This document shows positions 7,332 through 47,224 of a stretch of DNA of 64,000 nucleotides, piece after piece. Position 1 is the first letter of the stretch. Every line of letters starts with the position of its first letter. Under the pieces are notes generated by a model, which saw only the letters and a list, made by a program, of their open reading frames with translations, searched no databases and was not told where the DNA came from. A program made the position numbers and the translations under genes. This stretch comes from Candidatus Sericytochromatia bacterium (GTDB taxonomy: Bacteria > Cyanobacteriota > Sericytochromatia > UBA7694), in assembly GCA_018780035.1 (NCBI GenBank), contig JADMKE010000021.1, positions 27,844 to 91,843 of the forward strand. The letters run 5' to 3'.

Positions 7332-9896
7332 CTATCCTTCAAACAGACTCAATTGAACCGATTCGGGTGTCGGGGCATCCCCCCGACTCCGTTTCATCAG
7401 TCCCGACTGAATCCGGCTGCGCTTTTCAATATCTTGCAGCAGGCCACGGGCACGTTCCAAAACGGGCAAGGGCAAGCCAGCCAAGCGGGCCACTTCAATC
7501 CCATAGCTGCGATCGGCGCCACCGGGCACCACTTTGTGTAAAAAGACAATCCCATCGGCATTTTCTTGCACAGACACCTGGTAATTTTGCACCCCATCGA
7601 CACTTTCAGTCAGGCGATTGAGTTCGTGATAATGGGTGGCAAAGACAGTTAGAGACTGTAATTCCCGTGCAATATATTCACTCACCGCCCAGGCAATACT
7701 GACCCCATCAAAGGTGCTGGTGCCTCGGCCAATTTCGTCCAACAAAACCAAACTGCGGGCCGTGGCATGGTGCAAAATATTTGAGGTTTCCATCATTTCG
7801 ACCATAAAGGTACTCTGCCCGGTGGCGATATCATCGACAGCCCCCACGCGGGTAAAAATCCGGTCACAAATGCCAATTTGTGCGCTTTCAGCAGGCACAA
7901 AACTGCCCATCTGGGCCATCAAGACAATCAGGCCGGTTTGGCGCATAAAACTCGACTTGCCCGACATATTGGGGCCTGTGAGAATGATCAGACGCTGGTC
8001 ATGCCCATTGAGGGTGGCATCATTGGGCACATATTGGCCCGCTGGCAGCGTTTTTTCGATCACCGGGTGGCGCCCCCCACGGATATTTAAGCCCGGCAAG
8101 GCCTGAAAACGGGGGCGGCAATAGCGATTGTGAACAGCCACCTCGGCCAAAGCAGTCAAGACATCGAGCGCTGCTGTGGCGCCCGCCAAGGCCTGTAGCT
8201 CTTTTAAGTGAATCGCCACTTCTTGGCGCAAATTCAAATACAATTCATATTCCAGCTGCTTGACCTGCTCATCGGCATTGAGAATGGCAGCTTCTTTCTC
8301 TTTTAAAGCCGGGGTAATAAAACGCTCCGCATTGGTCAGGGTCTGCTTGCGCAAATAGTCAGAGGGCACATTGTCTTTATTGGCCTGGGTCACTTCGATA
8401 AAATAACCAAAGGTCTTGCTATAACCCACTTTTAACGATTTAATGCCTGTCCGTTCTCGCTCCTGTTGCTCCAACTCATTGAGCCAGGTCTTGCCCCCGC
8501 TCATCAATTCCCGCAATTCATCCAACTCTGGATTCAGGCCCGATTTAAAAATCCCGCCTTCCTGGATTTTAACGGGCAGAGTCTCTTGCAAACTGGCTTC
8601 AACCTTCTGCGCCATGGCCAACACTTCGGAGGGAATCTCGCGCAGGGCCTGAAAGAGTGAGGCATCTAAACCGTCTAAACAGCTGGCCAAAGCGGGCAAG
8701 CGAAGCAAACTCTCAGCCAGGGCCCGCAATTCTCGGGGGTTGGCGCCCTGGGTGGCGACGCGGGCCGAGAGGCGCTCCAGATCGCGTATGCCGTCGAGCT
8801 GCTCACGCAGATCAAAACGCAGATTGGGTTCCATCATCAGGGCCTGCACAGCATCCAAACGGGCTTCAATCGCTGGACGATCCAACAGGGGGTGATTGAG
8901 CCAATTGCGCAAGAGGCGCCCCCCCATGGCCGTACGGGTCTGATCCAAGACCCAGAGCAACGAACCTGCAAAGCTGTTTTCGCGGTAGGTCTGGGTCAAC
9001 TCTAAATTGCGCCGGGTGCTGCGGTCCAAAACCAAAAGATGGCTCAATAAATAAGTCACAGGTGGCTGTAATTGTTTTAAAGCACTCATTTGGGTTTGGC
9101 TCAAATAATGCAAGACGGCACCCGCAGCAGCCACGGCCAAAGGCATGTCTTGGCAGCCATAACTTTCAAGTGAGACCACACCAAAATGGTGCAAGAGCCG
9201 ATCGCGGCCCGTGCGCGGCTCAAAAATCAGGTGTGATTCCCAAGTCACCCCCTGGGGATCGGGAATCAGCGAGGCCCAATCACTGTTTTCGAGGGTCTGT
9301 TCACCCCAACCCAAACGGGTGGGCAACAACGTCTCTGCCAGCTCCAAGCCTGCCAATTCGCGCAGAATCAAATCTGCTGCGCCCTCTCCTGTCGCTTGGG
9401 TCAGGCGGAATTCACCGGTCGAGATATCGGTATAGGCCAAACCAAAGCCACTTTTGGCACGGTAAACCGCCCCCAAATAATTATTGCGCTTTTCTTGCAA
9501 CAGGGCCCCTTCAAGCAGAGTGCCTGGAGTAATCACCCGAATCACTTCGCGTTTGACCAATTTGCCGGGTTTGGGGGCCTCCATTTGCTCACAAATGGCC
9601 ACTTTATAACCTTTGCCAATTAAACGGGGCAAGTAGGCCTCCAGAGAGTGATAGGGAATACCGGCCATATCAATCCGCTTGCCTTGCCCCCCGTCGCGGG
9701 CCGTTAAGGTAATTTCCAATTCACGTGCAGCCGTGCGGGCATCTTCAAAAAAGGTCTCGTAAAAATCACCCATGCGGTAGAGCAAAAGGGCGTGGGGATA
9801 TTGCCTTTTGACCTCCAAAAATTGTTGCATCATCGGCGTAAATTGGTTGGGATCAAGATCAGCAGTAGTGATGGGGGAATTCAAACTGGGATTCAT
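7332..9896 (-). CDS. mutS: DNA mismatch repair protein MutS
   Basis: 854 aa with Walker A GPNMSGKSSFMRQ, the TFATHYHEL motif, and full MutS domain order. Confidence 0.95.
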   Translation of the reverse strand: MNPSLNSPITTADLDPNQFTPMMQQFLEVKRQYPHALLLYRMGDFYETFFEDARTAARELEITLTARDGGQGKRIDMAGIPYHSLEAYLPRLIGKGYKVAICEQMEAPKPGKLVKREVIRVITPGTLLEGALLQEKRNNYLGAVYRAKSGFGLAYTDISTGEFRLTQATGEGAADLILRELAGLELAETLLPTRLGWGEQTLENSDWASLIPDPQGVTWESHLIFEPRTGRDRLLHHFGVVSLESYGCQDMPLAVAAAGAVLHYLSQTQMSALKQLQPPVTYLLSHLLVLDRSTRRNLELTQTYRENSFAGSLLWVLDQTRTAMGGRLLRNWLNHPLLDRPAIEARLDAVQALMMEPNLRFDLREQLDGIRDLERLSARVATQGANPRELRALAESLLRLPALASCLDGLDASLFQALREIPSEVLAMAQKVEASLQETLPVKIQEGGIFKSGLNPELDELRELMSGGKTWLNELEQQERERTGIKSLKVGYSKTFGYFIEVTQANKDNVPSDYLRKQTLTNAERFITPALKEKEAAILNADEQVKQLEYELYLNLRQEVAIHLKELQALAGATAALDVLTALAEVAVHNRYCRPRFQALPGLNIRGGRHPVIEKTLPAGQYVPNDATLNGHDQRLIILTGPNMSGKSSFMRQTGLIVLMAQMGSFVPAESAQIGICDRIFTRVGAVDDIATGQSTFMVEMMETSNILHHATARSLVLLDEIGRGTSTFDGVSIAWAVSEYIARELQSLTVFATHYHELNRLTESVDGVQNYQVSVQENADGIVFLHKVVPGGADRSYGIEVARLAGLPLPVLERARGLLQDIEKRSRIQSGLMKRSRGDAPTPESVQLSLFEG

Positions 9897-10126: not shown

Positions 10127-10184
10127 AGTTAAGCCAGTTTCATAACCTCTATTCTGAATTAAAAAAGTGTATTTAAGACCCGCT

Positions 10185-11030
10185 ATGAAAATACGTTCTG
10201 TTCTTTCTCCAGAATTAAGCACCCTGTTGCAAACCCAGATCCAAGAGCTCGCACCCAATGCTGAGTGGCAAAATGCCAACTGGGAAGATTTAAGCAACCT
10301 CTCCGAGCCACTGCCAGATTTGCTTTTGCTCTCACCGGACAATCTGCAACCCGTGCAATTGATGCAGGTTCTCTACCCCCTGATCCGTCTGGAATTGCCC
10401 ACCTTGGTCTTTGTTGACGAAAGCCAACAAGAGCAAGATTGGCCCGAAGGCGGGCGCCTGGATTTTGTCTTTGCCCCCTGGAACCCCCGCAGCTTAAGCC
10501 AACACCTCAAATTGGCTCTCAAAATGGCAGAGGCCGTGCAGGAGCGCCGTCAAATAGCCCAAGAGGTCCAAAGCCTTTATGCCCGCTTAGAAGCCATCAA
10601 CCCCCTGGACTCCTCAACAGGACTTTACAATCGGCGCTGTTTTGAGGAACGCCTCAATGAAGAGTGGCGCCGTTCTCACCGCCATGCTTTGAGTATTTCG
10701 CTCTTGCTTTTGCGCTGGGTGGGCCCGGCGTCTGAGACAGATACAGCCAGCATCTTTCCCGAATTGCTCAAAGACATGAGTCCCTTGCGCTGTTCCGATT
10801 TGGCCGCCCGTTTGGACCCCACCACCTTGGCCATCCTCTTGCCCCAAACCCTGGAAACAGGAGCTGAGACCGTCGCCCAAGGCCTCTATCAGTCACTTCT
10901 GCCCAGGGCCATACAATCGGGTTATGAATTACAAATTGGGCTGCACTCATGCCAACCCCCCAGTCTCTTGGGTTCAGAAGATCTGATTACTCAAACCGAA
11001 GCCACACTGCGTTCTGGGGTTTTTTGTTAA
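10185..11030 (+). CDS. receiver-like N-terminal domain plus degenerate GGDEF domain protein (probably catalytically inactive)
   Basis: SSTGLYNRRCFEERL...RRSHRHALSISLLLLRWVG matches GGDEF-domain spacing. The signature position reads RLDPTT instead of RxGGDEF. Start taken at the ATG at 10185; the ORF begins at a GTG at 10167. Confidence 0.55.
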   Translation: MKIRSVLSPELSTLLQTQIQELAPNAEWQNANWEDLSNLSEPLPDLLLLSPDNLQPVQLMQVLYPLIRLELPTLVFVDESQQEQDWPEGGRLDFVFAPWNPRSLSQHLKLALKMAEAVQERRQIAQEVQSLYARLEAINPLDSSTGLYNRRCFEERLNEEWRRSHRHALSISLLLLRWVGPASETDTASIFPELLKDMSPLRCSDLAARLDPTTLAILLPQTLETGAETVAQGLYQSLLPRAIQSGYELQIGLHSCQPPSLLGSEDLITQTEATLRSGVFC

Positions 11031-11618: not shown

Positions 11619-12586
11619 ACGCCCGGCGCTGGGTGTTGAATCCGCTCAGCCAAATTTATTTGGGCTTGTTGGGCCCGCTCGGGCATGTCAGCCACGCTCT
11701 GCCAGCGGGTATGTAAAAAGCCATAGAGCTGGAGATCGCGCCAGTGAAAAAACAGAGGAAGTTCTGTCTCAAAAGTCTCTGACCAGGGCCGCACAGCTGA
11801 GTATCCCTCCCGTAAATAGTGGATCAGAAAAGCCACAAAGGCAGGGTCCTGGGTGTATTGTGCGCCCACAATATAATACAAAATCAGGGCCAAGTCCTGA
11901 TTAAACCAGCCCCGGTGACAATCATCAAAATCAAAAAGCCAAGCTTGACCCGCTTGCAAAAGGAAATTCCCACTGTGGATATCCCCGTGAATCAGGCCAA
12001 AGCAGTCAGAGTCAGAGGGCAATAGATGTAAAGCCTGTTGGGCTTTTTCCACAGCCCGCCAAAACCAAGCTGATTCAAGTTTGCTTTGGTGCGGCTGAAA
12101 AAAAGAAGGCACCCAATCCGGACGGGCCAGATAAAGCGGCTCAGGTAGAACATGGGCCCGCAAATGCATCTGGGCTGCCAAAGCCCCCAAAGCCCGGAGC
12201 AATTCAGGGCTCCAGCTTTGGCGATCGTCACGGCTTACCGGCTCCCCTGCAATCCAGGCAAAAGCTGAAAGCCAAAAGGTCTCACCACCGATCTCTCGAC
12301 ACTCTAACAACACATCATGTTCACTCAACAATGGCTGGCAGACAGAGAGCCCAGCCTGGCTCAAGGTCTCTAACCAGGCCATTTCAGCTTGCAATTGTAA
12401 CTGATTGCGGTGGCTTTGATGTACAAAACGCAAGGCAAAGTCGGGCTCTCCCTGGCAGCGGTAGACCAAATTTTCGGTATCCCCGACTTTGCCCTGAATC
12501 TGCCCCTGCCAGAGGCAAACAGCCTGTTCCAAATCTTCGGGCTGGATCAGGCCAAGTAATTCAGCCGTCAGCATGTTTTTGCCCAC
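11615..12586 (-). CDS. phosphotransferase-family kinase (APH/homoserine-kinase-II-like)
   Basis: LIHGDIHSGNFLL...WLFDFDDC matches the Brenner HGDxxxxN and DFD motifs of the APH/choline-kinase fold. Confidence 0.7.
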   Translation of the reverse strand: MGKNMLTAELLGLIQPEDLEQAVCLWQGQIQGKVGDTENLVYRCQGEPDFALRFVHQSHRNQLQLQAEMAWLETLSQAGLSVCQPLLSEHDVLLECREIGGETFWLSAFAWIAGEPVSRDDRQSWSPELLRALGALAAQMHLRAHVLPEPLYLARPDWVPSFFQPHQSKLESAWFWRAVEKAQQALHLLPSDSDCFGLIHGDIHSGNFLLQAGQAWLFDFDDCHRGWFNQDLALILYYIVGAQYTQDPAFVAFLIHYLREGYSAVRPWSETFETELPLFFHWRDLQLYGFLHTRWQSVADMPERAQQAQINLAERIQHPAPGV

Positions 12587-14009
12587 CGGATTGATTCAAA
12601 TTGAGTCGGGCTGTGGCCAATCCCAGGGCAATACAGACCCACAAGACAAAATGGAAAATGCCATGATTGGTCAAATCAAAGGCCAGACAGCCCACAAAGG
12701 CCACCAACCAAGTCATTTGTAGATCTTTTAAAGCGCGGTCTTGTGCCAAACGCCAGGCTTTCCAAAAGGTCCAAAGAATCCAGGCCATGGCCCCATAAAA
12801 GACCAAAAGCCCCAAGATCCCAGTTTCGGCCAATAATTGCAAAGGCACATTGTGGGTACCCACAAACCGGCCCAACCCATTGCCAATCCAAGGACTGTCG
12901 AGAAAATACTGCCAGGCCAACCCCCAGGTCTCCAAGCGCTGACCAGCAGATTCCACCGTCACATCCGACAATTCCCCAAAGCGCTGCCCGACCGTCACCA
13001 GCAATCCCGCTTCGCTGATCAATTGACTCAAGCGAAAGAGCCCCGCAAAAATGCCATAAAACATTCCGCCCAAAAGACAGAGTCGCCAAAAAGGGGGTCG
13101 GGCCAACGCCAAAAGAAAAAAGGCTCCGGTCACAAAGACCAGCCAGGAGGCGCGGGTAAAATTGATCACCAATGATGCCACCACCCAGGCCAAAAGCAGA
13201 TTCAGCAAGAGGCGCTTGCGCCCTTGAAAACGCAAAGGGTCGAGATAGAGCAAACCGATTAATAAAATGCCCACAGTCTGCAATATTTCGCCATATTCAT
13301 TTGCAAAGGTCCCCGGCGAAATGCGCAAAAACGGGCCATAAAAATCCACCAGAGAAGCGTGTTTGCCAATATATTCAAGTGGGTTGTAAAGGCCCGTATA
13401 AAAACCAACTTGCATCAACCAACCCACGGCCAACGAGAGAGCACAGGAACAGAGCAGGAGATAGATCCGGTTCCAAAGTGCTTCGGGCCTTGTCACAGAG
13501 GCAAATAAGACCCCTGCGGCCAAAACCAGCAGCCCATAATTAAACACCAAGCGAATCCCCGTCATATCCTGGCTCATAGCCAAATGCGCGGTTTCCGACC
13601 GCCCCAGCGAAGGCAACCAGGACAGGCCAATCCAAATAAAGGGCAGACACCAGGCCCAAGGCCAGGATTGCCCTGAACGTGAACCCAAACACCAGCGAAT
13701 GGTGTAGGCCACCAGGGCCAACAGCGCAAAGAGTTGGGGGGCTTTAAAACTAAACCCAACCTCCGCAGCAGTGAGAATCCCGAGAAAGACAAAAAGCGCC
13801 ACGGCTTGTGCCGATAAGCGCGGAGAGGCCAAAGACACAACAATAAAAACCAGAGCAAGGCAGCCCGCCAGAGCCAAGCGCAAACTTTCAAAAGGCCATG
13901 CCAGGGCCAAGAGCAGTGTGAGCAAAGTAGCCAGCCCCCACCAACGCAGTGAAGGCCCTTCGCGCACAAACAGAAGCCGATTCCCGAGACCCTTCACAGG
14001 CCCACTCAC
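12561..14009 (-). CDS. O-antigen ligase/polymerase (Wzy_C) family integral membrane protein
   Basis: About 12 TM segments. The HNVPLQLLAETGILGLLVF motif is characteristic of WaaL/Wzy_C periplasmic loops. Confidence 0.65.
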   Translation of the reverse strand: MSGPVKGLGNRLLFVREGPSLRWWGLATLLTLLLALAWPFESLRLALAGCLALVFIVVSLASPRLSAQAVALFVFLGILTAAEVGFSFKAPQLFALLALVAYTIRWCLGSRSGQSWPWAWCLPFIWIGLSWLPSLGRSETAHLAMSQDMTGIRLVFNYGLLVLAAGVLFASVTRPEALWNRIYLLLCSCALSLAVGWLMQVGFYTGLYNPLEYIGKHASLVDFYGPFLRISPGTFANEYGEILQTVGILLIGLLYLDPLRFQGRKRLLLNLLLAWVVASLVINFTRASWLVFVTGAFFLLALARPPFWRLCLLGGMFYGIFAGLFRLSQLISEAGLLVTVGQRFGELSDVTVESAGQRLETWGLAWQYFLDSPWIGNGLGRFVGTHNVPLQLLAETGILGLLVFYGAMAWILWTFWKAWRLAQDRALKDLQMTWLVAFVGCLAFDLTNHGIFHFVLWVCIALGLATARLNLNQSGGQKHADG

Positions 14010-36943: not shown

Positions 36944-37035
36944 ACGAAATAGGCCTTTTAGATTCTGCTGCAGAAACGCCAGAGCGGGTGCTAATATAGA
37001 ACCATGGATTGTTTGAAAGGATCGTCGCCTCCCTT

Positions 37036-38214
37036 ATGAAATTCAGTCAACTCAAAAAAACCGCATTGCTTTCGGCACTGATGGCCGCCTCTTTTGCCGC
37101 CGGGGTCACCCTTCAGCCCGTTTTAGCTGAATCTGGCGGTTTCCGCGTTTTTCTCGAAGTGTATGATTTGGTCAAAATGGAGTATGTCGAGAAAAAAGTA
37201 GACGACCAGAAATTGGTCAAAGGCGCGATCGATGGCATGTTAAGCATGTTGGACGATCCCTATACCCGCTATATCGCCCCTGACGAATTTAAACAGATGA
37301 ACGAAGAGCGCGAGGGCAGCTTCAGCGGCATTGGTATCCAAATTGGCACCCGCGACAATAAGCTGACCGTGATTGCCCCCATCGAAGATACCCCCGCATG
37401 GCGGGCCGGTCTTAAAGCCGGAGACTGGATCAAGGCGATTGATGGCAAAAATACCGAGACCATGGTCGTGGATGACGCCGTTAAATTGATTCGTGGCAAA
37501 GAGGGTACGGCAATCAAGCTCCTGATCTACCGCGAAGACAGCAAAAAGACCTTGGATATTTCCGTTACCCGCGGAAAAATCGAAAACAAAGTCGTTAAAT
37601 ACAAGATGATCAAAAACAATATTGGCTATCTGCGTTTAACGACATTTATGCAGAATAATTCCCCAGAAGAAATGAAAAATGCAATTAATGAGCTAAAAAA
37701 ACAGGGAATGTCGGCATTGATTTTTGATATTCGCAGCAATCCGGGCGGTCTCTTGCCCAATGCTGTAGATATTGGCAGCCTTTTTGTCAGCGAAGGACCG
37801 ATCGTGCGGATTGTCGATCGCGATGGCAAAGAAGAAAAACTCAATGCCAGCGGACGAATTGCCCTGGATAAAAACACCCCCATGGCTGTTTTGATCGATG
37901 GTGGCAGTGCCAGTGCCTCTGAAATTGTGGCCGGCACACTCAAAGACAATCAACGTGCTATTTTGATTGGCACACGCACCTTCGGCAAAGGTTTGGTTCA
38001 AACCGTACACAACCTCAGCAACGGCTCAGGGATTGCAATTACCACCAATAAGTACCTCACGACCAAAGGCACGGATATCAACAAAAAAGGCATTGATCCC
38101 GATGTCCTGGTGACCGTTCCCAAAGAAGTGCTCGACAAACCCTATTCTGAGAGCCTCGATGTACAATTGCAAAAAGCAATTGAATTGATGAGTGAACGGA
38201 TCGCCGCAAAATAA
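37036..38214 (+). CDS. ctpA: carboxyl-terminal processing protease (S41) with PDZ domain
   Basis: Signal peptide from the ATG at 37036. S41 Ser/Lys catalytic region ([12 protein letters not shown]...TFGKG). Confidence 0.9.
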
Positions 38215-38660
38215 TGCGTCTGGTGCTGCAAAGAGTCTCTTATGGTGCTGTGCGCGTCGAAGAACAACTCGTGGGAGAGGTCAAAGGCCCCGGATTGGTT
38301 TTATTGGTGGGCATAGGCCCCAACGATCACAGTGATGAATTGCGCTTTTGGGCTCAGAAATGTATCAATTTACGGGTATTTCCAGACGAGGAAGGCAAAA
38401 TGAACCGCTCCCTGCTGGAGATTGGCGGAGGGGTTTTGGCCGTTTCGCAATTTACGCTCTATGGCGATGCCCGCAAAGGCCGCCGCCCCGGTTTTTCAGG
38501 GGCAGCTCAACCTGAACTGGCCGCGCGGCTCTACGATGAATTTGTGGGCTATTTGCGCGAAACCGGCGTGCCCGTGGCCACCGGTATTTTTCAGGCCCAT
38601 ATGGACGTCGAAATCCACAACGATGGGCCCGTGACCCTCTTACTTGGCAGTGACTGTTAA
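38214..38660 (+). CDS. dtd: D-aminoacyl-tRNA deacylase
   Basis: MRLVLQRV...SQFTLYGD...NDGPVT match the Dtd motifs. The TAATG overlap is with the ctpA stop. Confidence 0.9.
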
Positions 38661-39819
38661 ATTCCGTCTCCATCTGCCATTTTTACTGCCCTTACTGGCC
38701 GGTATGCTCTTCGCTTTTCTGGCTGGGCTCAATCTGCCTCGGGCAGAAGCAGGTCTGAGCCGTGAAATGGCCAGTTTGCAGGAATTGGCACAGATTCTGC
38801 AGCAGAAACCACTCAAAGCGTTATCCGAGGCCAGCCTGTGGCAAGCAGCCACACGTGGTATGTTGGCCAGCCTGGGAGACCCCTATAGCTATTATTTAAA
38901 TGTGCAGGAATACACCGAAATCAAACAGCTCAAGACGGGCGAAGTCGCAGGTATTGGCATTGAGGTGGGGGTTCAAAACGGTGAATTAAAGGTGATCAGT
39001 GCACTCGATCATTCCCCCGCCTGGAAAGCCGGTTTACAAGCGGGAGACCTGATACGCAAAATCGAAGCAAAGAGCACGGCCCAATTGAGTTTTGCAGAGT
39101 CTTTGCAATTATTGCAGGGGGAAACGCAGACCTGGGTTCAATTGGAAATTGAGCGCCCCCCGAGCCTCACCCGCTTTAATCTGCGTATACAACGCGAAAT
39201 TCTCGATCTCAATCCTGTGCGCTATCAAATGCTGCCCAATCAAATCGGTTATATTCGCCTCAATTCTTTTTTTTCAGATCAGGTACCGGAATCAATGCAA
39301 ACAGCCCTAACAGCCTTAGATGAAGCCGGCATGCGGGCCTTGATCTTGGATTTGCGTAACAATCCGGGGGGCACGCTTAGCAATGCCATCGAAGTCTGCA
39401 GCTTGTTTTTGCCCCAAGGCAATGTGGTGCGGGTGGTTGATCGGGAAAATCAAGAGACCTTGCACACTGTCACAGGTTTGCCACTTTTGGATTCTGGCAA
39501 AGAATTGGTGCTTTTGGTCAATCAGGGCACTGCCAGTGCAGCAGAAATCGTGGCAGGCAGCCTGCAAGAACAGGGACGGGCCGTTTTACTCGGCAAAAAG
39601 ACCTTTGGCAAGGGTCTGGTTCAAAGTCTTCAGAGTTTATCAGATGATTCGGGGCTTTCACTGACAACGAGCAAATATCTCACGGCCTTTGGTCAAGCGG
39701 TACATGGAAAAGGGATCGAACCCGATCTCGAAGTTGAATTGCAAACGGGCGTTCAACAGGGCTCAGAGCAAGACACCCAGCTTCAAAGCGCTTTGGCCTT
39801 TGTCCAAGACGCACTTTAA
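38644..39819 (+). CDS. second carboxyl-terminal processing protease (S41) with PDZ domain
   Basis: Paralogous layout to ctpA ([13 protein letters not shown]...TFGKG). A TTG/GTG start overlaps the dtd 3' end. Confidence 0.85.
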
Positions 39820-39933: not shown

Positions 39934-41235
39934 ATGTTTCAGAAAGTCAAAACTCTGTTTGCCGCCACATTGCCGCTTTTACTCAGCTTAACCGCCTGTT
40001 CAGGCCAGGTGCCCCTGGGTTTGAACCCCGCCAATAATCCAGCAACACTCACTCGCTTTTCTCAACCGTTGAGACCCGTCAAAGCCCAATTGCCACCCGC
40101 CCGTGGCGAACGCCCCGTGACCATGCTCTCTTATATTGCCATGGATGACAACCTCTCCCAAGCCGGTGCTCTGATGCTGGATGCCATGGAGCAAAGTGTC
40201 AGTGAACGCGGCTATTATCTGGCCTTCGCCGATTTACAGGGTCCCGATAATTCTTTCTTGGCTTATCTCATGAACGATGGCAAACCTCAGCAAATTGGTT
40301 CTGCGGTCTCTTATCTCACGCCCAAAACCAAAGAAGTTGATTCCAATGATCCTGCAACCCTCTCCCAGACCATCAATTGGGCCTTTTCAAATTATCCCGG
40401 CAAAGTCAAAATTTTTGACATCCTCGCCCATGGTGGTGGCTATTTTGGCATTGGCACCGATGATCACAAGGTCAGCGCCAATCCCCGCGAAATTATGAGT
40501 GTTGGCGATTTTGGCACGGCTGTGCGCCAGGGCCTCAAAGGCCGTCAATTTGATGTCATGAACTTTCTCTCCTGTTTGATGGGCAATGTCGAAGCCATGT
40601 ATGAATTGCGCGATCTGGCCAAAGTGGTGATTGCCTCCGAAGACAGCGTGTCGGCCACCCAAGACACCGTGGTAAATTTTACCCGTGAATTGACCCGCCT
40701 CTCCGCCCAGCCCCTGAGCCCCCAACAAATTGGCGCCCAAATGGTGGCATTTGCCGACGTGCGCAATCCGCAACACGGCTATTTTTCACTCGCGGCCCTG
40801 GATATGCGCTATATGGGCGAATTCAAAACCAGCATGAACGTGCTCAGCAATACCCTGATCCGCGCTCTGCCCGCTCACAAGGCCCAAATTCTGGCCGCCT
40901 ACGATCAGGTGCCTGAATTGGTGAATTCCCCCAATACCGGCCAGCGCGATCTGATCACCTTCTTGAACAATCTGCTGCGCCTGGTGCCCAATCAAGCGGT
41001 TCAACAATCTGCACTGAGCGTCAAACAGGTGTTGAAAAAACGCCTGATGATCGCAGCCAAAGACAAAGAGGGCATTGCCGCCAACGGCCTGTCGATCTTC
41101 TTGCCCCCTTCCAAAGTGGGCCCCACACAAATGCCTCCCGATTTTGGTATGATCTCCAATACCGGCTATTTCAAAAGCCGTTTTGCCAGAGAGACCAGCT
41201 GGGATCAATTTATTGCTGCTCTGCTCAAACCTTAA
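39934..41235 (+). CDS. lipoprotein, possible clostripain-like (C11) cysteine peptidase
   Basis: Lipobox LSLTACSG. His (ILAHGGGYFG) and Cys (FLSCLMGN) spaced as in C11 His-Gly...Cys dyads. Confidence 0.45.
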   Translation: MFQKVKTLFAATLPLLLSLTACSGQVPLGLNPANNPATLTRFSQPLRPVKAQLPPARGERPVTMLSYIAMDDNLSQAGALMLDAMEQSVSERGYYLAFADLQGPDNSFLAYLMNDGKPQQIGSAVSYLTPKTKEVDSNDPATLSQTINWAFSNYPGKVKIFDILAHGGGYFGIGTDDHKVSANPREIMSVGDFGTAVRQGLKGRQFDVMNFLSCLMGNVEAMYELRDLAKVVIASEDSVSATQDTVVNFTRELTRLSAQPLSPQQIGAQMVAFADVRNPQHGYFSLAALDMRYMGEFKTSMNVLSNTLIRALPAHKAQILAAYDQVPELVNSPNTGQRDLITFLNNLLRLVPNQAVQQSALSVKQVLKKRLMIAAKDKEGIAANGLSIFLPPSKVGPTQMPPDFGMISNTGYFKSRFARETSWDQFIAALLKP

Positions 41236-41324
41236 TTGAGTTTGCGCAAGTTCAAAACATAATGAAGCAAAAGCCCCGCTCGTTCGCGGGGCTTTGTGAT
41301 TGAGAGTGGTTTGGCAGAACTAAA

Positions 41325-42683
41325 CTAATCCGTTAAAGACCAAGCCTCTCCGATTTGAATCACCCGCTGCTCTTGTCTCAACTTCAGCAAATGGGCTTGC
41401 AGTGAGCGACGGGCCAGGGGCCAAGCCCGCGAATCGGTATCCACGTAAACCTGTTCGAGCAATGCCCTTTCAGCCAGTGGACCAGAAGCCAAAGCTGCAA
41501 GCACTTTTTCTTCGCGATTGAGGCGGTGCCTATAATACTGCCGACAACTGGCGGAGGGGTCTTGTAAAATCGGTCCATGTGAGGGAATCGCTGAGTGAAG
41601 CTGGGCTGCCTCTAGTTTTTTGAGTGAGTCCAAATACTGCCCCATATCCCCATCTGAGGGATCAATCAAAATTGAGCCAATCCCCGCCAACATGTCTCCG
41701 ACATGGGCCACACGGTGGCGCAGGTCGATCAGACAGAGATGGCCGGGGGCGTGGCCGGGCGTAAACAGGGCCTCAACGTCCCAGCTCTGACCCGTGGCAG
41801 GATCTGCGCCCAATTGCCAGCGAAAGCCATCGGAAATCTCCTGGCTGATTTCCAATTGGCCTGTCAATAGCGCAGAGGTCTGGGCGTGGGCCTGGATGGG
41901 CAGTTCCAATGCCTCACTCAAAGCACGGGCACCGCTGACATGATCGACATGGTGATGCGTCAAAACAATGGCGACAGGCCTATCCCCCCGCGCCTGACGG
42001 GCCGCAATTCGCGCTTGCAGCAAGGCCTGTTCTTCGGGATAGGGCGAAGCCGGATCGACAATCAAAAATTGGGGCCCGCCGATCAGGGCACAATTGGTAT
42101 GGGTGGCAGGCAGCAAAGTGGGCGTACGCAGTGGAATCACCTCAATCCCTGGATGCAGTTCTAAATCGGAATAGAGATGCTCACGATCATTTTCCAGATT
42201 TTTGAGGGCCGAGAGATCCAGCCCCGAGACTGCCAATTCTGCCAAAATCCCACGGATCGGGGGAGGCAGTCGCAATAGCCCCCTTTGCCAGCGTTGCAGC
42301 AAAGCTGCAGGTTCAATCCAAATTGCCTCCGACAACTCCGGGCTCAACACCCCCAGAGGCATGGCTTCGGGCAGTTCATGCAAAAAATAGCGGGTCTCAA
42401 AGCGCTTGGGCGAAAAGGGGGGGGTGACCCGCCAACCCAGGTCATGGATTTTGGCCTGAACATCAATCACTATCCCCACTTCTTCAGCAGTTTCGCGCAG
42501 GGCACAGCTCAAAAAGGACCCCAACTCCGATTCAGGCCCATCTTCGGGATCAAGTTTGCCCCCCGGAAAGGTCCAATGGTCGGGAAAACTGCGCTGATCT
42601 GAGGCCCGCTTGCCAATCAAGACCTGCAAACGGGGCTGCTGTGCAACCAAAATGAGGAGGGCGGCAGGGATAAAATCAGGCAT
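41325..42683 (-). CDS. Nudix hydrolase fused to metallo-beta-lactamase-fold hydrolase
   Basis: Nudix box GGKLDPEDGPESELGSFLSCALRETAEEVG. MBL motif LTHHHVDHVSG. The ATG at 42683 overlaps the kinase stop by 8 nt; an alternative start lies at 42728. Confidence 0.75.
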   Translation of the reverse strand: MPDFIPAALLILVAQQPRLQVLIGKRASDQRSFPDHWTFPGGKLDPEDGPESELGSFLSCALRETAEEVGIVIDVQAKIHDLGWRVTPPFSPKRFETRYFLHELPEAMPLGVLSPELSEAIWIEPAALLQRWQRGLLRLPPPIRGILAELAVSGLDLSALKNLENDREHLYSDLELHPGIEVIPLRTPTLLPATHTNCALIGGPQFLIVDPASPYPEEQALLQARIAARQARGDRPVAIVLTHHHVDHVSGARALSEALELPIQAHAQTSALLTGQLEISQEISDGFRWQLGADPATGQSWDVEALFTPGHAPGHLCLIDLRHRVAHVGDMLAGIGSILIDPSDGDMGQYLDSLKKLEAAQLHSAIPSHGPILQDPSASCRQYYRHRLNREEKVLAALASGPLAERALLEQVYVDTDSRAWPLARRSLQAHLLKLRQEQRVIQIGEAWSLTD

Positions 42684-45024
42684 CCACCGGCAAAGAGGGG
42701 GCCATGAGTTGTACACCACCATTTTCATTAAACTGGGCCAAAAACAGGAAGTAGCCTTTGTTCCAACCCATTTTCACAAAACCCCTTTCGCTTTCACCCA
42801 TGCCAAACAAACCGGGTTTGCCTGTCAATTGATTGAACTTGGCCAAAACGCCCGCAGACAGAGGCTGATAGGCCACCAGCATGGCAGCCTGAATATCGTC
42901 TTGGGCCCGCTCGGTCTTGATCCTGCGAACATCTTCAACCATATTCGAAAGCGTCTCTTCGCTGATCTCGTTTTCAAAGCGAAACAGCGCAGTGAGTTGG
43001 TCCTGATTATTATAGGCCAAAATATCAAAAGTGGCGCTGAAGCTACCCATTTTGACAGGCTGGAGAAATTTGAGCGCTTTAAACTGCCAAGCCCAGGTAA
43101 AACGGCGTTTGAGCGATGAAAACGCCGATGAGCGCGAAAGCCCGTACATAAATTCATACAAGAGCCAATCCACAGCTTTAAAATGATTGGTCTCTTTGAG
43201 AATATCAGAATATTTGATCGTGCGGTTGCCAATTTCAAAGGTCGCATCTTTGGGCAAGATGGTGGTGGTATCGGTATTGCGCAGCGCCTCTTCCATCATT
43301 TCTGAACTGAGTTGTTTTTCTTTGGCTCCGGCATAATGGGCCAAAACAGGGCGGTTGATCGATTTACTCACGATTTGCAACTGGGCTTCAACCAATAATT
43401 TGCGCAAACTCGGTCCGATCAGATTAAAGCGAGGGGCATAAATGCTGAGATCAAAATACTCCCCATCATAATTCCCGGCAGGATAGGGCATCGCGATCGA
43501 AAAGACCTGCTGTCCATCGAGAAAACCCAACCATTTAAGCGTGCGTTTTTCAATCACCTTTAACATGCCACTGAAGCGCTTGGACTTTTGCAATTCAATC
43601 GCTTTGGTCACATCGCCTTTGGAACACATCGGATTGTGCTCCATCAGGGTATGTGCCCCCACCATGATCGCCAGCAACACCAGCCAGGGTTCTTCTTTTT
43701 CCATCGGCATACACTGGGTCATTTCAAACTTCTGCCAAGAGGCCATGTGTTGATAAGCAGCGGGTCCGGATAACTCAGGCTTGTTGACCATGGCACCGAC
43801 GATCAGGCCTTTGTAGATCAAGAGAATCACCGAATTGTTGATGATCAAGCCCTGGCTTTTGCCCTCGTATTTATAAATCGCTTCGAGCATGGTATTGGTG
43901 GTCAGATTTTCGACTTTCCAACCGCGCAAAATGCGCAAGACAGCTGAAAAAGCCGTCGGGTCGTCGATGCCTTCGACCAAATTAAATTCTTTGCTGCGCG
44001 GGGTGGGCGTTCCACTCATGCCCATATTCAGGGTACCCGTACTGAGGGTTGAGGAATTGCCCGTGGACGTGCCTACGCCATATTGGGTGGGTGTATTGTC
44101 GTGATGTTTGACAACATGTTCAATCCCCCGATTGGAATGGCTCAGATCCACGCTGGGCATGGGTGTGCTCTCAAAGCTTGAAGAACCCGTCAACGTTTGC
44201 AAAACGGCCTCTAAATCAGCGGCAAAATCTTTGGCCGTGTCGTAACGCATATCCACGGTTTTGGCCATGGCCTTAAAAATAATCCCATCCAATTCAGCCG
44301 GGATTTGCGGGTTGAGTTCACTCGGACGGGGAGGCTCACTTTGCATGATTTTCATGACAATTTCGCCAATATTGGAGCCGTTATAAGGCAATTGGCCGGT
44401 TAAAATTTCATAAGCGGTCACACCCAAAGAATAGATATCTGCACGTTTGTCGACATCTTTGGGGTTCATCAATTGTTCGGGTGAGATATACAATAAACTG
44501 CCCAAAATCGAACCTGCTTTGGTCAAATCCGACTGGGTAGACTCCAGACGGGCAATCCCAAAATCGGTGAGTTTGGTGGTGCCATTGTCCAAAATGACAA
44601 TATTGGCAGGTTTAATATCGCGGTGAATGATCCCCTGGAAATGGGCAAAGTCCAGCGCGTCACAGGTTTGAATCATCGATTTGATCGCCACAGGCACGGA
44701 AAGAGGTGAGTGAATTTTGAGCAATTGCGCCAGGTTTCGCCCTTGCAAAAACTCCATCACCATATAATAACGGCCTTCATATTCGCCGAAATCAAAAATA
44801 CTGACAATATTGGGATGATTGAGTTTGGCACTGGCTTTGGCCTCACGCTTAAAGCGCTCAATCAATTCGTCTTTGGTCTGTTGCGTCATATTGGGGTCAT
44901 GGGGCAATTCAATCACTTTGATGGCAACATGACGATCCAGACGGGGATCGATGGCATCAAGCACAACACCCATGCCCCCCCGGCCCAGCTCACCCAAAAT
45001 ATCGTATTGTGCTATTTTTTCCAC
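42676..45024 (-). CDS. Ser/Thr protein kinase with large uncharacterised C-terminal domain
   Basis: GELGRGGMGVV...AIKVI...HRDIKPANIVIL...DFGIA are Hanks kinase subdomains. About 480 aa follow with no recognisable motif. Confidence 0.85.
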   Translation of the reverse strand: MEKIAQYDILGELGRGGMGVVLDAIDPRLDRHVAIKVIELPHDPNMTQQTKDELIERFKREAKASAKLNHPNIVSIFDFGEYEGRYYMVMEFLQGRNLAQLLKIHSPLSVPVAIKSMIQTCDALDFAHFQGIIHRDIKPANIVILDNGTTKLTDFGIARLESTQSDLTKAGSILGSLLYISPEQLMNPKDVDKRADIYSLGVTAYEILTGQLPYNGSNIGEIVMKIMQSEPPRPSELNPQIPAELDGIIFKAMAKTVDMRYDTAKDFAADLEAVLQTLTGSSSFESTPMPSVDLSHSNRGIEHVVKHHDNTPTQYGVGTSTGNSSTLSTGTLNMGMSGTPTPRSKEFNLVEGIDDPTAFSAVLRILRGWKVENLTTNTMLEAIYKYEGKSQGLIINNSVILLIYKGLIVGAMVNKPELSGPAAYQHMASWQKFEMTQCMPMEKEEPWLVLLAIMVGAHTLMEHNPMCSKGDVTKAIELQKSKRFSGMLKVIEKRTLKWLGFLDGQQVFSIAMPYPAGNYDGEYFDLSIYAPRFNLIGPSLRKLLVEAQLQIVSKSINRPVLAHYAGAKEKQLSSEMMEEALRNTDTTTILPKDATFEIGNRTIKYSDILKETNHFKAVDWLLYEFMYGLSRSSAFSSLKRRFTWAWQFKALKFLQPVKMGSFSATFDILAYNNQDQLTALFRFENEISEETLSNMVEDVRRIKTERAQDDIQAAMLVAYQPLSAGVLAKFNQLTGKPGLFGMGESERGFVKMGWNKGYFLFLAQFNENGGVQLMAPSLPVDA

Positions 45025-45030
45025 GCTAGA

Positions 45031-47094
45031 TTACTTCCACTGAGTTTCTTGTGTGCCTTTGACCCACTTGGTATCGCGAATTTCGGTAGCCGCACCCGCT
45101 TCGTCTTTCCAACCCAGGACCTCAAAAACCGACACGGTTTCTTCTTTGCCCTTGACTTTCGCATTGCCACAGTGGCGAGCATTGACACGATCTTTGACCA
45201 AATCATAGGTGTTTTGGCTGATCAAAATGCTGGAATTAAACTCTTTATTCAGGCCTTCAAGCCGCGCGGCGGTATTAACAGCATCCCCAATCACGGTATA
45301 GTCCATTTTTTGCGGAGAGCCAAAATTGCCCACCAGGGCTTCTCCCGTATTGATGCCAATGCGGATTTGCAGGGGCACCATGCCTTCAGAAAGCCATTTT
45401 TCGCGCAAATGCGCCAAAGTACGCTGCATTTGAATCGATGTATTTACAGCTTTATAAGCATCGGTTTTGGGATTACTCGACCCCACATTGCCCCAAATCG
45501 CCATAACAGCATCGCCGATGTATTTATCCAAGGTGCCATCATTGCTGAAGACGATTTCACTCATCGCGGTCAGGTATTCATTCAAAATATGCTCGACCTC
45601 ATCGGGTGGCAGGCTTTCAGACATTGAGGTAAAACCAGCAATATCGGAGAAGAGAACGCTGACCATGCGGCGCTCACTTTTGAGGCTGGGCATCGTAGAG
45701 GGATCTTTGAGCAATTCTTCGACCAATTTGGGCGAGACGTACGACTTAAAGAATTTGCGAATGCGCCGTTTTTCCCGCTCTTCAACCAGGTAACGATAGG
45801 CATAACTCACGGTATAACTGCCTACCATCGCCACCATGGGTGCAAACCAATCAATAAACAGGCGTTGAAAATTAAAGAAATAGACATTAAAAACAGAATA
45901 AGCCGCCATTAGACCGATCACCATCGCCAGTCCACCCAGCGGCCCCAAGAACGAAAGTCCCAAAGCAGTCACCACAGCAAAAGCCAGAATTAAAAGATAA
46001 TTCAGACTGCTGGGCGCTTGGATATACGGATTGTCCTGGCGCAGGGTTTCAAAAAGATTGGCGTGGACCTCAACCCCCGGCATTTTGGTTGAACCCGCAG
46101 AGACAAAAGGCGCATTTTTATTGTCTTGCAAAATCTCCGCCGAAGCACCGATCAGGACAATTTTATTTTTAAAAAAGTCTTTGGGGCGTTGTTTGACCAA
46201 TTGCTGAAAGTAATTATCGTCAAAGCCCGGCTGGCCAAGTTTGTGAACAATATAATAAGACAGCGTTTTAAAGCTCTGAGGGGGACCCGCAAAATTGATC
46301 CAAAGGGGTTGATCCGCGTATTTGTCGATCAGGGCATCCGCTTTTTTGGGGTCGAGCTGACGCAGCATGCTCAGGGTAAAATGCGGTTCATACTTTTTTC
46401 GCAGGGTCATGGCCGTCGGCAAAAGCTGTTCTGTTTCCAGATTATAGACAATCTGCGCACGGCGAATCTGATTGTCAACCATCCCTTCATCGACATTGGC
46501 AAAACCAAACTTGGCATCAGACTCAAAGATCGGGGGGCTATAAGAAGCAGATTCAGTGGTATCCACGGATTGTTCATCGTTCCCCCCACTGGCACCTGAG
46601 CCGCTGATCCGAGAGGTCGAGCCAAATTCAAATTTGCTGACAACCACAGTTTTATCGGCATGTTTGGCCAAAGTCTGTTTCAGGGCGGCATCTGCTTCGG
46701 GAAACTGGGAGGGGGTTAAAAACATAATATCAAAGGCAACCAACTTGGCTCCGAGGGCGATCAGTTTCTCGGCGACGCGGGCATGCACATCCCGCCGCCA
46801 GGGATAGGGACCAACTTCTTCGAGAGAGGCTTCGTCCATGGCCAAAATGACCACATCATCGGGGGTGGGGCGCGTGCCCCTGAAGGTTTCAAAGCGGGTA
46901 TTGTAAAGCATCAACTCGACCTGTTTAAAGGTCGGCATTTTTTCATTTGCGGCCAGGAACAGACCGCCCACCAAAAGACCAATTCCCAAATTGATCAAAA
47001 TCCGTTTCCAGAGCATAGACGCATCCTCGCTGCTTAAGCCATTGTTCTCAGCATTGTAACACACCCAAAGTCTCAGCTCTGTGAGCCAGTTCAT
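45031..47094 (-). CDS. CHASE2 sensor domain-containing class III adenylate/guanylate cyclase
   Basis: Periplasmic CHASE2-like region, TM helices, and a C-terminal cyclase homology domain (VLFSDIAGFTSMSE...GDAVMAIWG...GINTGEALVGNFG). The start may be the internal Met at 47016. Confidence 0.85.
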   Translation of the reverse strand: MNWLTELRLWVCYNAENNGLSSEDASMLWKRILINLGIGLLVGGLFLAANEKMPTFKQVELMLYNTRFETFRGTRPTPDDVVILAMDEASLEEVGPYPWRRDVHARVAEKLIALGAKLVAFDIMFLTPSQFPEADAALKQTLAKHADKTVVVSKFEFGSTSRISGSGASGGNDEQSVDTTESASYSPPIFESDAKFGFANVDEGMVDNQIRRAQIVYNLETEQLLPTAMTLRKKYEPHFTLSMLRQLDPKKADALIDKYADQPLWINFAGPPQSFKTLSYYIVHKLGQPGFDDNYFQQLVKQRPKDFFKNKIVLIGASAEILQDNKNAPFVSAGSTKMPGVEVHANLFETLRQDNPYIQAPSSLNYLLILAFAVVTALGLSFLGPLGGLAMVIGLMAAYSVFNVYFFNFQRLFIDWFAPMVAMVGSYTVSYAYRYLVEEREKRRIRKFFKSYVSPKLVEELLKDPSTMPSLKSERRMVSVLFSDIAGFTSMSESLPPDEVEHILNEYLTAMSEIVFSNDGTLDKYIGDAVMAIWGNVGSSNPKTDAYKAVNTSIQMQRTLAHLREKWLSEGMVPLQIRIGINTGEALVGNFGSPQKMDYTVIGDAVNTAARLEGLNKEFNSSILISQNTYDLVKDRVNARHCGNAKVKGKEETVSVFEVLGWKDEAGAATEIRDTKWVKGTQETQWK

Positions 47095-47224
47095 CGATTT
47101 TGTCGAATTTGGGACAATTATTTGTGGCCAAATTGCATTAAAAATGATTTAAATTTTTTAAGCCTTTTGATAATTTCTGATGATTTGTGGAATAGAGTTA
47201 AGAGAGTAGACGAAAAATCAAGGG

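Follow-up and report, generated by a model that had tools for sequence, protein, structure and literature searches.

Among class III cyclases, a Lys/Thr pair at the two specificity positions is the ATP-specific pattern of class IIIb, and the CyaB cyclase of this kind senses its cue through a membrane MASE2 domain. Nudix enzymes cut pyrophosphate bonds, which are absent from cyclic nucleoside monophosphates. Cyclic AMP (cAMP) phosphodiesterases with the metallo-β-lactamase (MBL) fold, namely Rv1339, YfhI and CpdA, are known and carry the motif [T/S]HxHxDH (PMC9293780). In the TOMM kinase/cyclase fusions, Ser/Thr kinase and class III cyclase act together beside a cluster for peptide modification. 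We describe here a trio of minus-strand genes, encoding a cyclase, a kinase and a two-domain hydrolase, at positions 41325 to 47094 of a 64,000-nucleotide stretch of DNA from a Candidatus Sericytochromatia bacterium (assembly GCA_018780035.1, contig JADMKE010000021.1, positions 27,844 to 91,843; this whole stretch is termed the window, and coordinates refer to it unless a locus is named). The Sericytochromatia are a group of cyanobacterial relatives that lack photosynthesis and have no cultured members, and to our knowledge almost nothing is known of their signaling. An earlier note on this DNA had proposed that the three products synthesize, transduce and degrade a nucleotide second messenger in a self-contained circuit. 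Our analysis covers how the genes are laid out, which domains, catalytic residues and folds their products contain, and how far the trio is conserved. It leads us to favor, with a probability of roughly 40%, the alternative that the three genes are co-transcribed as a sensory operon specific to this clade and do not form a closed messenger circuit.

The layout given in the earlier note, with three minus-strand genes separated by a 6-nucleotide gap and an 8-nucleotide overlap, agrees with the open reading frames (ORFs) and the sequence, and its description of the trio as a tightly spaced unit is reinforced by conservation in 15 related loci. The cyclase gene (maximal ORF 45031..47094, minus strand, 687 residues) is followed by the kinase gene (42676..45024, minus strand, 782 residues, GTG start), the junction reading TGGAAG TAA tctagc GTG GAA, which leaves the 6-nucleotide gap. 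The next junction reads GGTGG ATGCCTGA, with the hydrolase ATG at 42683 overlapping the kinase stop by 8 nucleotides. This ATG (gene 41325..42683, minus strand, 452 residues) is favored as the true start over that of the maximal ORF, which extends to 42728 and would give 467 residues, because the hydrolase homologues begin with MP(D/N/E)FI in the alignment. The cyclase probably starts at Met27 (ATG 47016), since the alignments with its relatives begin only at about residues 25-27, the 26 N-terminal residues encoded beyond 47016 being absent from them, and since the orthologue in locus L001 has 666 residues. A terminator-like hairpin (41264..41277, minus strand), recognized as a consensus match only, lies just 3' of the hydrolase stop; it is the sole such minus-strand site in a scan of 41000-47400, in which site counts did not exceed those of shuffled sequences. 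At the other end, a divergent intergenic region of 130 bp (47095..47224) lies between the cyclase gene and a plus-strand gene for a 972-residue protein. With these spacings, the cyclase, kinase and hydrolase would be expected to be co-transcribed.

The presence of the same order, strand and short spacers in 15 further loci (L001-L013 and L027/L028) indicates that the three-gene arrangement exceeds chance. These loci, identified by neighborhood comparison using tblastn and ORF clustering, all belong to Sericytochromatia, as does the window, the sixteenth. A scan of one genome per species likewise returned 11 loci, all from this class, and proteins matching the kinase tail, either 100% or 53-89% identical to it, are annotated as Candidatus Blackallbacteria or Sericytochromatia. 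The trio is retained down to an identity of about 60%. Across the trio loci, identity to the window proteins is 83-99% for the kinase domain, 64-98% for the cyclase, 59-99% for the kinase tail and 38-94% for the hydrolase. The spacers range from the 8-nucleotide overlap to about +60 nucleotides, always on one strand, and an ATGnnTGA overlap between kinase and hydrolase is retained in several lineages. In one locus (L007) the two genes appear as a single ORF of 1192 residues; this was rejected as a fusion, a run of 100 N at 7506-7605 of that locus marking an assembly or masking artefact. The gene order 3' of the hydrolase, on the right-hand boundary of the trio, takes at least six configurations, the neighbors being, depending on the locus, a gene for a C11 peptidase, ctpA in immediate succession, radA with a small ORF, SnoaL/DUF2202, either of two other gene sets, or a 4HBT thioesterase. 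Despite these rearrangements the hydrolase and the kinase are never split, and this persistence of the pair while the downstream genes vary provides fair evidence, at the level of gene order, that the conserved trio acts as a functional unit.

The first gene encodes, as the earlier note had held, a periplasm-sensing class III cyclase, with Pfam matches to both expected domains and hydrophobic flanks around the sensor. The CHASE2 extracytoplasmic sensor domain spans residues 49-376 (45967..46950, minus strand; PF05226, E 3e-42, 145 bits), and the cyclase homology domain residues 476-654 (45133..45669, minus strand; Guanylate_cyc PF00211, E 3e-25, 89.3 bits against a gathering cut-off of 21.9). 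Since hydrophobic segments lie on both sides of CHASE2, at residues 30-50 before it and in a block at about 360-407 after it, the sensor is predicted to face outward in the usual topology. The best-scoring solved relatives of the catalytic domain are, in order, Pseudomonas aeruginosa CyaB (PDB: 3R5G, 160 bits), Synechocystis Cya2 and Spirulina CyaC. In the alignment to these three none of the six canonical residues is missing (Asp484, Lys524, Asp528, Thr600, Asn607 and Arg611), the metal-binding Asp484/Asp528 and the transition-state Asn607/Arg611 aligning with their CyaB counterparts. The specificity pair, Lys524 in DKYIGD (motif DKxxGD) and Thr600 in DYTVIG (motif DYTxIG), is identical to that of CyaB, and the same two positions hold Glu and Gly in the guanylyl cyclase Cya2. 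Because this pair is the ATP-specific pattern of class IIIb, cAMP is most likely the product, and the protein is predicted to be an ordinary class IIIb adenylyl cyclase. The suggestion in the earlier note that the messenger might be something other than cAMP or cGMP finds no support: the protein has the Lys/Thr pair and the full catalytic set of a class IIIb adenylyl cyclase, and it is closest to CyaB. The resemblance to CyaB, and to the class IIIb CyaC of Spirulina, extends end to end over the catalytic domain, with the Asp, Lys/Thr and Asn/Arg pairs alike, whereas the sensor is a periplasmic CHASE2 instead of MASE2 and the gene shares its operon with a kinase. A Crp-type gene lies about 10 kb from the trio in L001; tblastn found none in the window, in what was a weak test with an E. 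coli CRP query. Our literature search returned nothing specific on a Sericytochromatia adenylate cyclase or on CHASE2 combined with a kinase.

The second gene was described earlier as a Hanks kinase whose C-terminal two-thirds contains no recognizable domain. The first part of this description stands. The kinase domain occupies residues 7-260 (44245..45006, minus strand; Pfam Pkinase, E 7e-50), with the Hanks motifs GRGGMG (14-19), VAIK (33-36), HRDIKPANI (134-142), DFG (154-156) and SPEQ (181-184) all intact. The single hydrophobic stretch of the protein is modeled as β-strands, and the product is predicted to be a soluble, catalytically intact Ser/Thr kinase. It shares the kinase domain and all catalytic motifs with the PknB/Stk1-type kinases, and the PknB/Stk1 PASTA family model NF033483 aligns over residues 9-272, that is, over the kinase domain only (326 bits against a cut-off of 450). 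It differs from them in lacking a transmembrane segment and PASTA domains and in possessing a low-complexity Ser/Thr/Gly-rich linker, recognized by direct reading of the sequence (residues 281-343; 43996..44184, minus strand), followed by a tail of about 440 residues. The second part of the earlier description needs amendment, as the tail ends in a DUF7527 domain (residues 567-782; 42679..43326, minus strand), matched by Pfam at 567-777 with an E value of 2.6e-9, above the cut-off. Between linker and DUF7527 lies a middle region of 216 residues (344-559; 43348..43995, minus strand), which consists of two small α/β units and has no detectable relative. The tail family is rare: clustering at 50% identity yields only 28 clusters in a set of 1.84 billion representative proteins. 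In the 28 aligned sequences a kinase domain accompanies the tail in 22 and DUF7527 is matched in 27. We found nothing specific on DUF7527 in the literature.

A confident AlphaFold model of the tail, built from 34 sequences, attained a pLDDT of 88.7 and a pTM of 0.81. In fold searches against the PDB with Foldseek its best matches were to EndoMS/NucS (E 4e-4, probability 0.84-0.96), with more than 300 columns aligned. The modest scores suggest that the DUF7527 part adopts a restriction-endonuclease-like PD-(D/E)xK fold, and the tail as a whole may resemble the two-domain layout of NucS. Identity of the tail to NucS/EndoMS, AF1548, BglII, NucC and Can2 is only 6-13%, with low TM-scores, and unlike these nucleases the window domain is fused to a kinase and belongs to a family that does not conserve the D...(D/E)xK signature. 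In column statistics over the 28 family representatives, the expected catalytic Asp324 is found in 14 and replaced by Ser in seven, the third strand carries R-x-G/E with no ExK, and Lys360, on the helix after that strand, is the only conserved one of these sites (26 of 28). This pattern of degeneration argues for an active site that is non-catalytic or strongly modified, and the tail would then have a role other than that of a nuclease. The earlier claim that the tail transduces a nucleotide signal receives no backing from these comparisons: the only fold matches are restriction-endonuclease- or NucS-like, the middle 216 residues match nothing, and no similarity to CAP/cNMP_binding, GAF or PAS domains was detected by sequence or fold. 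A guess that the middle of the tail might be a PATAN/DUF4388 domain was discarded when none was found in six family members scanned at E values up to 10.

Distant members of the kinase family, at 32% identity (L014) or about 20-25% (L015 and L020-L023), have neither a cyclase nor a Nudix/MBL gene as neighbor. In L014 (4160-7028) the kinase-DUF7527 homologue adjoins two Amidase_2 genes, in L020 (4150-5880) a PBP2-type transpeptidase gene, these neighbors being cell-wall genes, and in L021 and L022 downstream genes for DUF547. There are hints that the ancestral role of the kinase-DUF7527 family may have been related to the cell envelope.

The third gene had been identified in the earlier note as a Nudix/MBL hydrolase, and this identification is upheld with the addition of a C-terminal winged helix and with both active sites intact. 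The Nudix domain spans residues 7-130 (42294..42665, minus strand; Pfam NUDIX, 8e-13), the MBL domain residues 194-360 (41604..42104, minus strand; Pfam Lactamase_B, 1e-23) and a BLACT_WH winged helix, as in LACTB2, residues 407-448 (41340..41465, minus strand; Pfam, 9e-11). The Nudix box contains REtaEEvG at 63-70, with an insertion that lengthens the spacing before RE, and the MBL domain contains THHHVDH at 242-248. In 24 family members R63, E64, E67 and E68 of the former are invariant or nearly so, and the metal ligands H243, H245, D247, H248, H311, D330 and H369 of the latter are invariant, which suggests that both halves are probably active. At least 1771 homologues exist, most of them with the same Nudix-MBL-winged-helix architecture. 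On the MBL side, comparison of the family profile with the PDB retrieved human LACTB2 at 3e-42, covering MBL and winged helix, followed by glyoxalase II, the coenzyme A (CoA) thioesterase PqsE and enzymes of the persulfide dioxygenase type. The closest systems on this side are LACTB2 (PDB: 4AD9), glyoxalase II (GloB and YcbL) and PqsE; the LACTB2 alignment takes in the MBL domain and the winged helix over residues 200-449, with all the metal ligands present, and the window protein differs in its N-terminal Nudix fusion.

On the Nudix side, the best match was the uncharacterized protein 3QSJ (about 4e-30 to 4e-29), aligned across the whole Nudix half, followed by MutT, the CoA pyrophosphatase DR_1184 and NUDT7. 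The CoA diphosphatases (DR_1184, PDB: 1NQZ; NUDT7; E. coli NudL) are among the next-best matches in both the PDB and NCBIfam, and the R-[SA]-x3-R-x3-G-x3-FPGG stretch that precedes the Nudix box resembles their motif. The corresponding stretch reads RRAxxLRFLPGFWAFPGG in the family and KRASDQRSFPDHWTFPGG in the window protein, where the motif KRAsdqRsfpDhwtFPGG at residues 25-42 has Asp in place of the motif Gly. Compared with the CoA-diphosphatase motif, which we take to be LLTxR[SA]x3Rx3Gx3FPGG (PROSITE PS01293), the family consensus fits from the Arg onward and lacks the LLT start. Set against this likeness, the scores to CoA enzymes in the PDB (E about 1e-7 to 1e-8) are no better than, and on par with, those to MutT and ADP-ribose pyrophosphatases, the best Nudix-type NCBIfam match, CoA pyrophosphatase PRK10707, reaches 1.7e-7 and 31 bits against a cut-off of 134, and the window Nudix box has its insertion. 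The CoA-diphosphatase-like signature of the Nudix half is accordingly suggestive, not decisive. The protein may also resemble NUDT19, in an interrupted Nudix box and motifs of the WxTP...RRFDT...FFL type. The mammalian NUDT19 is described as having an insertion in its Nudix box (PMC12894707).

The claim of the earlier note that the hydrolase degrades the messenger is not supported, its MBL half grouping with LACTB2, glyoxalase II and PqsE and its Nudix half with 3QSJ and the CoA diphosphatases. The link to a messenger is further loosened by five loci from Myxococcota or groundwater, where the fusion has gene neighborhoods of quite other kinds and neither a cyclase nor a kinase adjoins it. Given that the nearest characterized relatives act either on CoA compounds and thioesters, as do the CoA diphosphatases, glyoxalase II and PqsE, or on RNA, as does LACTB2, the substrate would be expected in one of these classes. 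The enzyme has the look of a hydrolase of general use, for metabolites or RNA, that was recruited into the operon, and not of a dedicated messenger phosphodiesterase. In three Myxococcota-type contigs (L016, L019 and L029) the Nudix/MBL fusion has a small ORF upstream, then genes for a PocR-σ54 activator, YacG and PilZ, while ArsA-like ATPase and PEGA genes lie not far off. Such a conserved neighborhood could help to assign the substrate. Within the Sericytochromatia loci, a 4HBT (hotdog) gene of the acyl-CoA thioesterase type directly follows the hydrolase in L027/L028 (8340-8810, minus strand) and lies a few genes past it in L001 (16652-17116, plus strand). A faint echo of the CoA/thioester theme of the hydrolase may be seen in these 4HBT neighbors.

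In the sensory operon that we favor, an extracytoplasmic cue would act through CHASE2 on the cyclase domain, which would make cAMP from ATP; the receptors for this cAMP would lie outside the operon, a candidate being the product of the Crp-type gene some 10 kb off in L001. The soluble kinase would add a second output, by phosphorylation, or else provide cross-regulation, and there may be cross-talk among kinase, cyclase and hydrolase. The nuclease-like tail most likely serves as a targeting or regulatory module that binds a partner or nucleic acid, and not a cyclic nucleotide. The hydrolase, translationally coupled to the kinase in several lineages, would be a co-expressed enzymatic output or pathway target whose substrate is of the CoA/thioester type or RNA; most likely it is not the phosphodiesterase of the messenger. 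Several observations weigh against this interpretation. Co-transcription is deduced from the spacing of the genes, and the confinement of all trio loci to one class means that common ancestry could account for some of the shared gene order. Judging from the distant members that lack both the cyclase and the hydrolase, the kinase can dispense with these partners. The CoA-type signature of the Nudix half is weak, with PDB matches at about 1e-8 that resemble those to MutT and ADP-ribose pyrophosphatases and with Asp for the motif Gly in the window protein. The [T/S]HxHxDH motif of the atypical class II cAMP phosphodiesterases (PMC9293780) is literally present as THHHVDH, and the middle 216 residues of the tail could contain a binding site of a new kind, for cAMP or for another ligand.

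The last two of these points also speak for the circuit of the earlier note, in which a nucleotide messenger made by the cyclase is received by the kinase tail and destroyed by the Nudix/MBL enzyme. The trio is indeed conserved and tightly coupled, an unmatched fold of this size could hide a new binding site, and Rv1339, YfhI and CpdA (PMC9293780) are cAMP phosphodiesterases of the MBL fold with the motif [T/S]HxHxDH. That motif, however, is generic to glyoxalase II-type enzymes as well and by itself does not discriminate. Rv1339, the YfhI/YhfI protein of B. subtilis and CpdA of C. glutamicum share the MBL fold and the motif with the window hydrolase, but they belong to a Lactamase_B_2/RNase Z-related branch, whereas the latter is nearest to LACTB2, glyoxalase II and PqsE; neither a class II nor an atypical class II phosphodiesterase (YhfI chain) occurs among its 60 best PDB profile matches, all with E <= 2e-6, and Pfam gives no match to PDEase_II (PF02112). 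The Nudix half would find no pyrophosphate bond in a cyclic nucleotide, the hydrolase family is widespread and without a linked cyclase in the five loci outside Sericytochromatia, the kinase tail resembles none of the CAP, GAF or PAS domains in sequence or fold, and the cyclase residues are standard for ATP. With a tail of unrelated fold, and with a CoA/RNA-type signature in the hydrolase that is suggestive though not clear, a circuit that synthesizes, transduces and degrades its own messenger appears quite improbable. We regard it as doubtful, too, that the three genes are functionally uncoupled and adjacent merely by descent in one lineage. The restriction of all 16 loci, the window included, to Sericytochromatia would be expected on that explanation, as would the occurrence of the kinase and hydrolase families each alone elsewhere and the much faster evolution of the hydrolase relative to its neighbors (38-49% versus 60-85% identity). 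It is difficult to reconcile with a right-hand boundary rearranged at least six times without ever separating hydrolase from kinase, or with spacers of -8 to about +60 nucleotides on one strand and an ATGnnTGA overlap kept in several lineages.

Two further explanations draw in other systems. An anti-phage defense of the Pycsar/CBASS type, in which the cyclase would generate an infection signal to which a nuclease-like kinase effector and a nucleotide hydrolase respond, is prompted by PADLOC models, those for PycC matching the cyclase domain (5e-33) and those for PD-T4-6 kinases the kinase domain. We consider it very improbable: the PADLOC matches reflect generic domain homology, CyaB outscoring PycC; the likeness to NucC and Can2 is that of a common nuclease fold whose catalytic residues are degenerate in the tail; a periplasmic CHASE2 is ill-suited to sensing infection inside the cell; the operon contains no cNMP-binding effector; and the locus lies among glmU, pth, dtd, ctpA and gpsA and is syntenic across the clade, not sporadic. 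The other explanation extends the trio to a six-gene unit, of which the divergently transcribed half makes a modified peptide or protein while the cyclase and kinase sense or regulate it, in analogy to the kinase/cyclase fusions that accompany TOMM peptide clusters. The divergent block (47225-51910, plus strand) adjoins the trio in every locus reaching that far (L001, L003-L006 and L009-L013 in addition to the window). It begins with the gene for the 972-residue protein (47225..50143), which has an HExxH motif (VHELGH) and weak matches to Peptidase_Mx1 and TIGR04549, and which stands beside the trio in 12 of the 12 loci that extend to it. Next comes a small protein of 171 residues (50289..50804), recognized by comparing C-termini across loci, since in the window and in 11 of 11 other loci it ends in PGC or PSC while the bodies, 171-208 residues long, are very divergent. 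A radical SAM/SPASM protein resembling peptide maturases (50798..51910) completes the block; it is closest to WgkB, ScmE, GeoRSP and mycofactocin maturases. TIGR03903, the TOMM kinase/cyclase fusion model, gives weak domain-level matches to the cyclase and the kinase (27 and 145 bits against a cut-off of 706). The comparison holds in that Ser/Thr kinase and class III cyclase accompany a peptide-modification cluster; it breaks down in that the window genes are separate and carry other extra domains, and that their neighbor is a radical SAM/SPASM enzyme in place of a cyclodehydratase. The block may serve to modify a peptide or protein and may be linked to the signaling genes, and it looks like a cassette of no described family. 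Yet all radical SAM matches are far below the family cut-offs, the small protein is long for a precursor and found no known family in library scans, joint conservation inside one class may be no more than synteny, and nothing ties CHASE2 to a peptide ligand, so that a six-gene unit must be called unlikely. A more specific version, in which the radical SAM/SPASM and HExxH proteins process the PGC-ending protein into a product that the CHASE2 cyclase senses either directly or indirectly, with the kinase and its NucS-like tail and the Nudix/MBL hydrolase as intracellular outputs, is a long shot; were it true, the unit would be a circuit responding to a self-made signal in those non-photosynthetic cyanobacteria that branch deepest. 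A more restricted form of this novel reading would make the unmatched 216-residue region a new kind of cAMP receptor.

The genes around the trio are of the housekeeping kind, namely glmU-like, pth, two ctpA-like peptidase genes, dtd and gpsA. The two paralogous CtpA-like S41 peptidase genes stand on either side of dtd, which encodes D-Tyr-tRNA deacylase (37009-39819, plus strand), an arrangement kept in the closer relatives. A gene for a clostripain-family (C11) peptidase (39934-41235, plus strand) is convergent to the hydrolase and is found only in the closest relatives, L004-L007. Elsewhere in the window, the C-terminal half of an ORF at 10167-11030 (plus strand) appears GGDEF-like by eye (…GLYNRRCFEERL…), which, if correct, would make it another nucleotide-signaling gene. 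An outlying AT skew (0.33) at 12001-14000 proved ordinary, coinciding with a minus-strand gene for a multi-pass membrane protein of 482 residues.

Apart from the middle 216 residues of the kinase tail, all domains of the trio fall into known superfamilies. The cyclase is an ordinary one, and the operon reveals neither a new messenger nor a new kind of circuit. What is new is the clade-specific combination of three genes, the architecture joining a kinase to an unmatched fold and a nuclease-like domain, and a possible link to a radical SAM cassette. The operon flags a very large uncharacterized family of Nudix-LACTB2 fusions, whose domain pairing suggests a CoA/thioester or capped-RNA substrate, and it defines a rare kinase family whose tail joins the unmatched fold to the nuclease-like domain. 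For the Sericytochromatia themselves, it represents a concrete and conserved pairing of cAMP synthesis with Ser/Thr phosphorylation.

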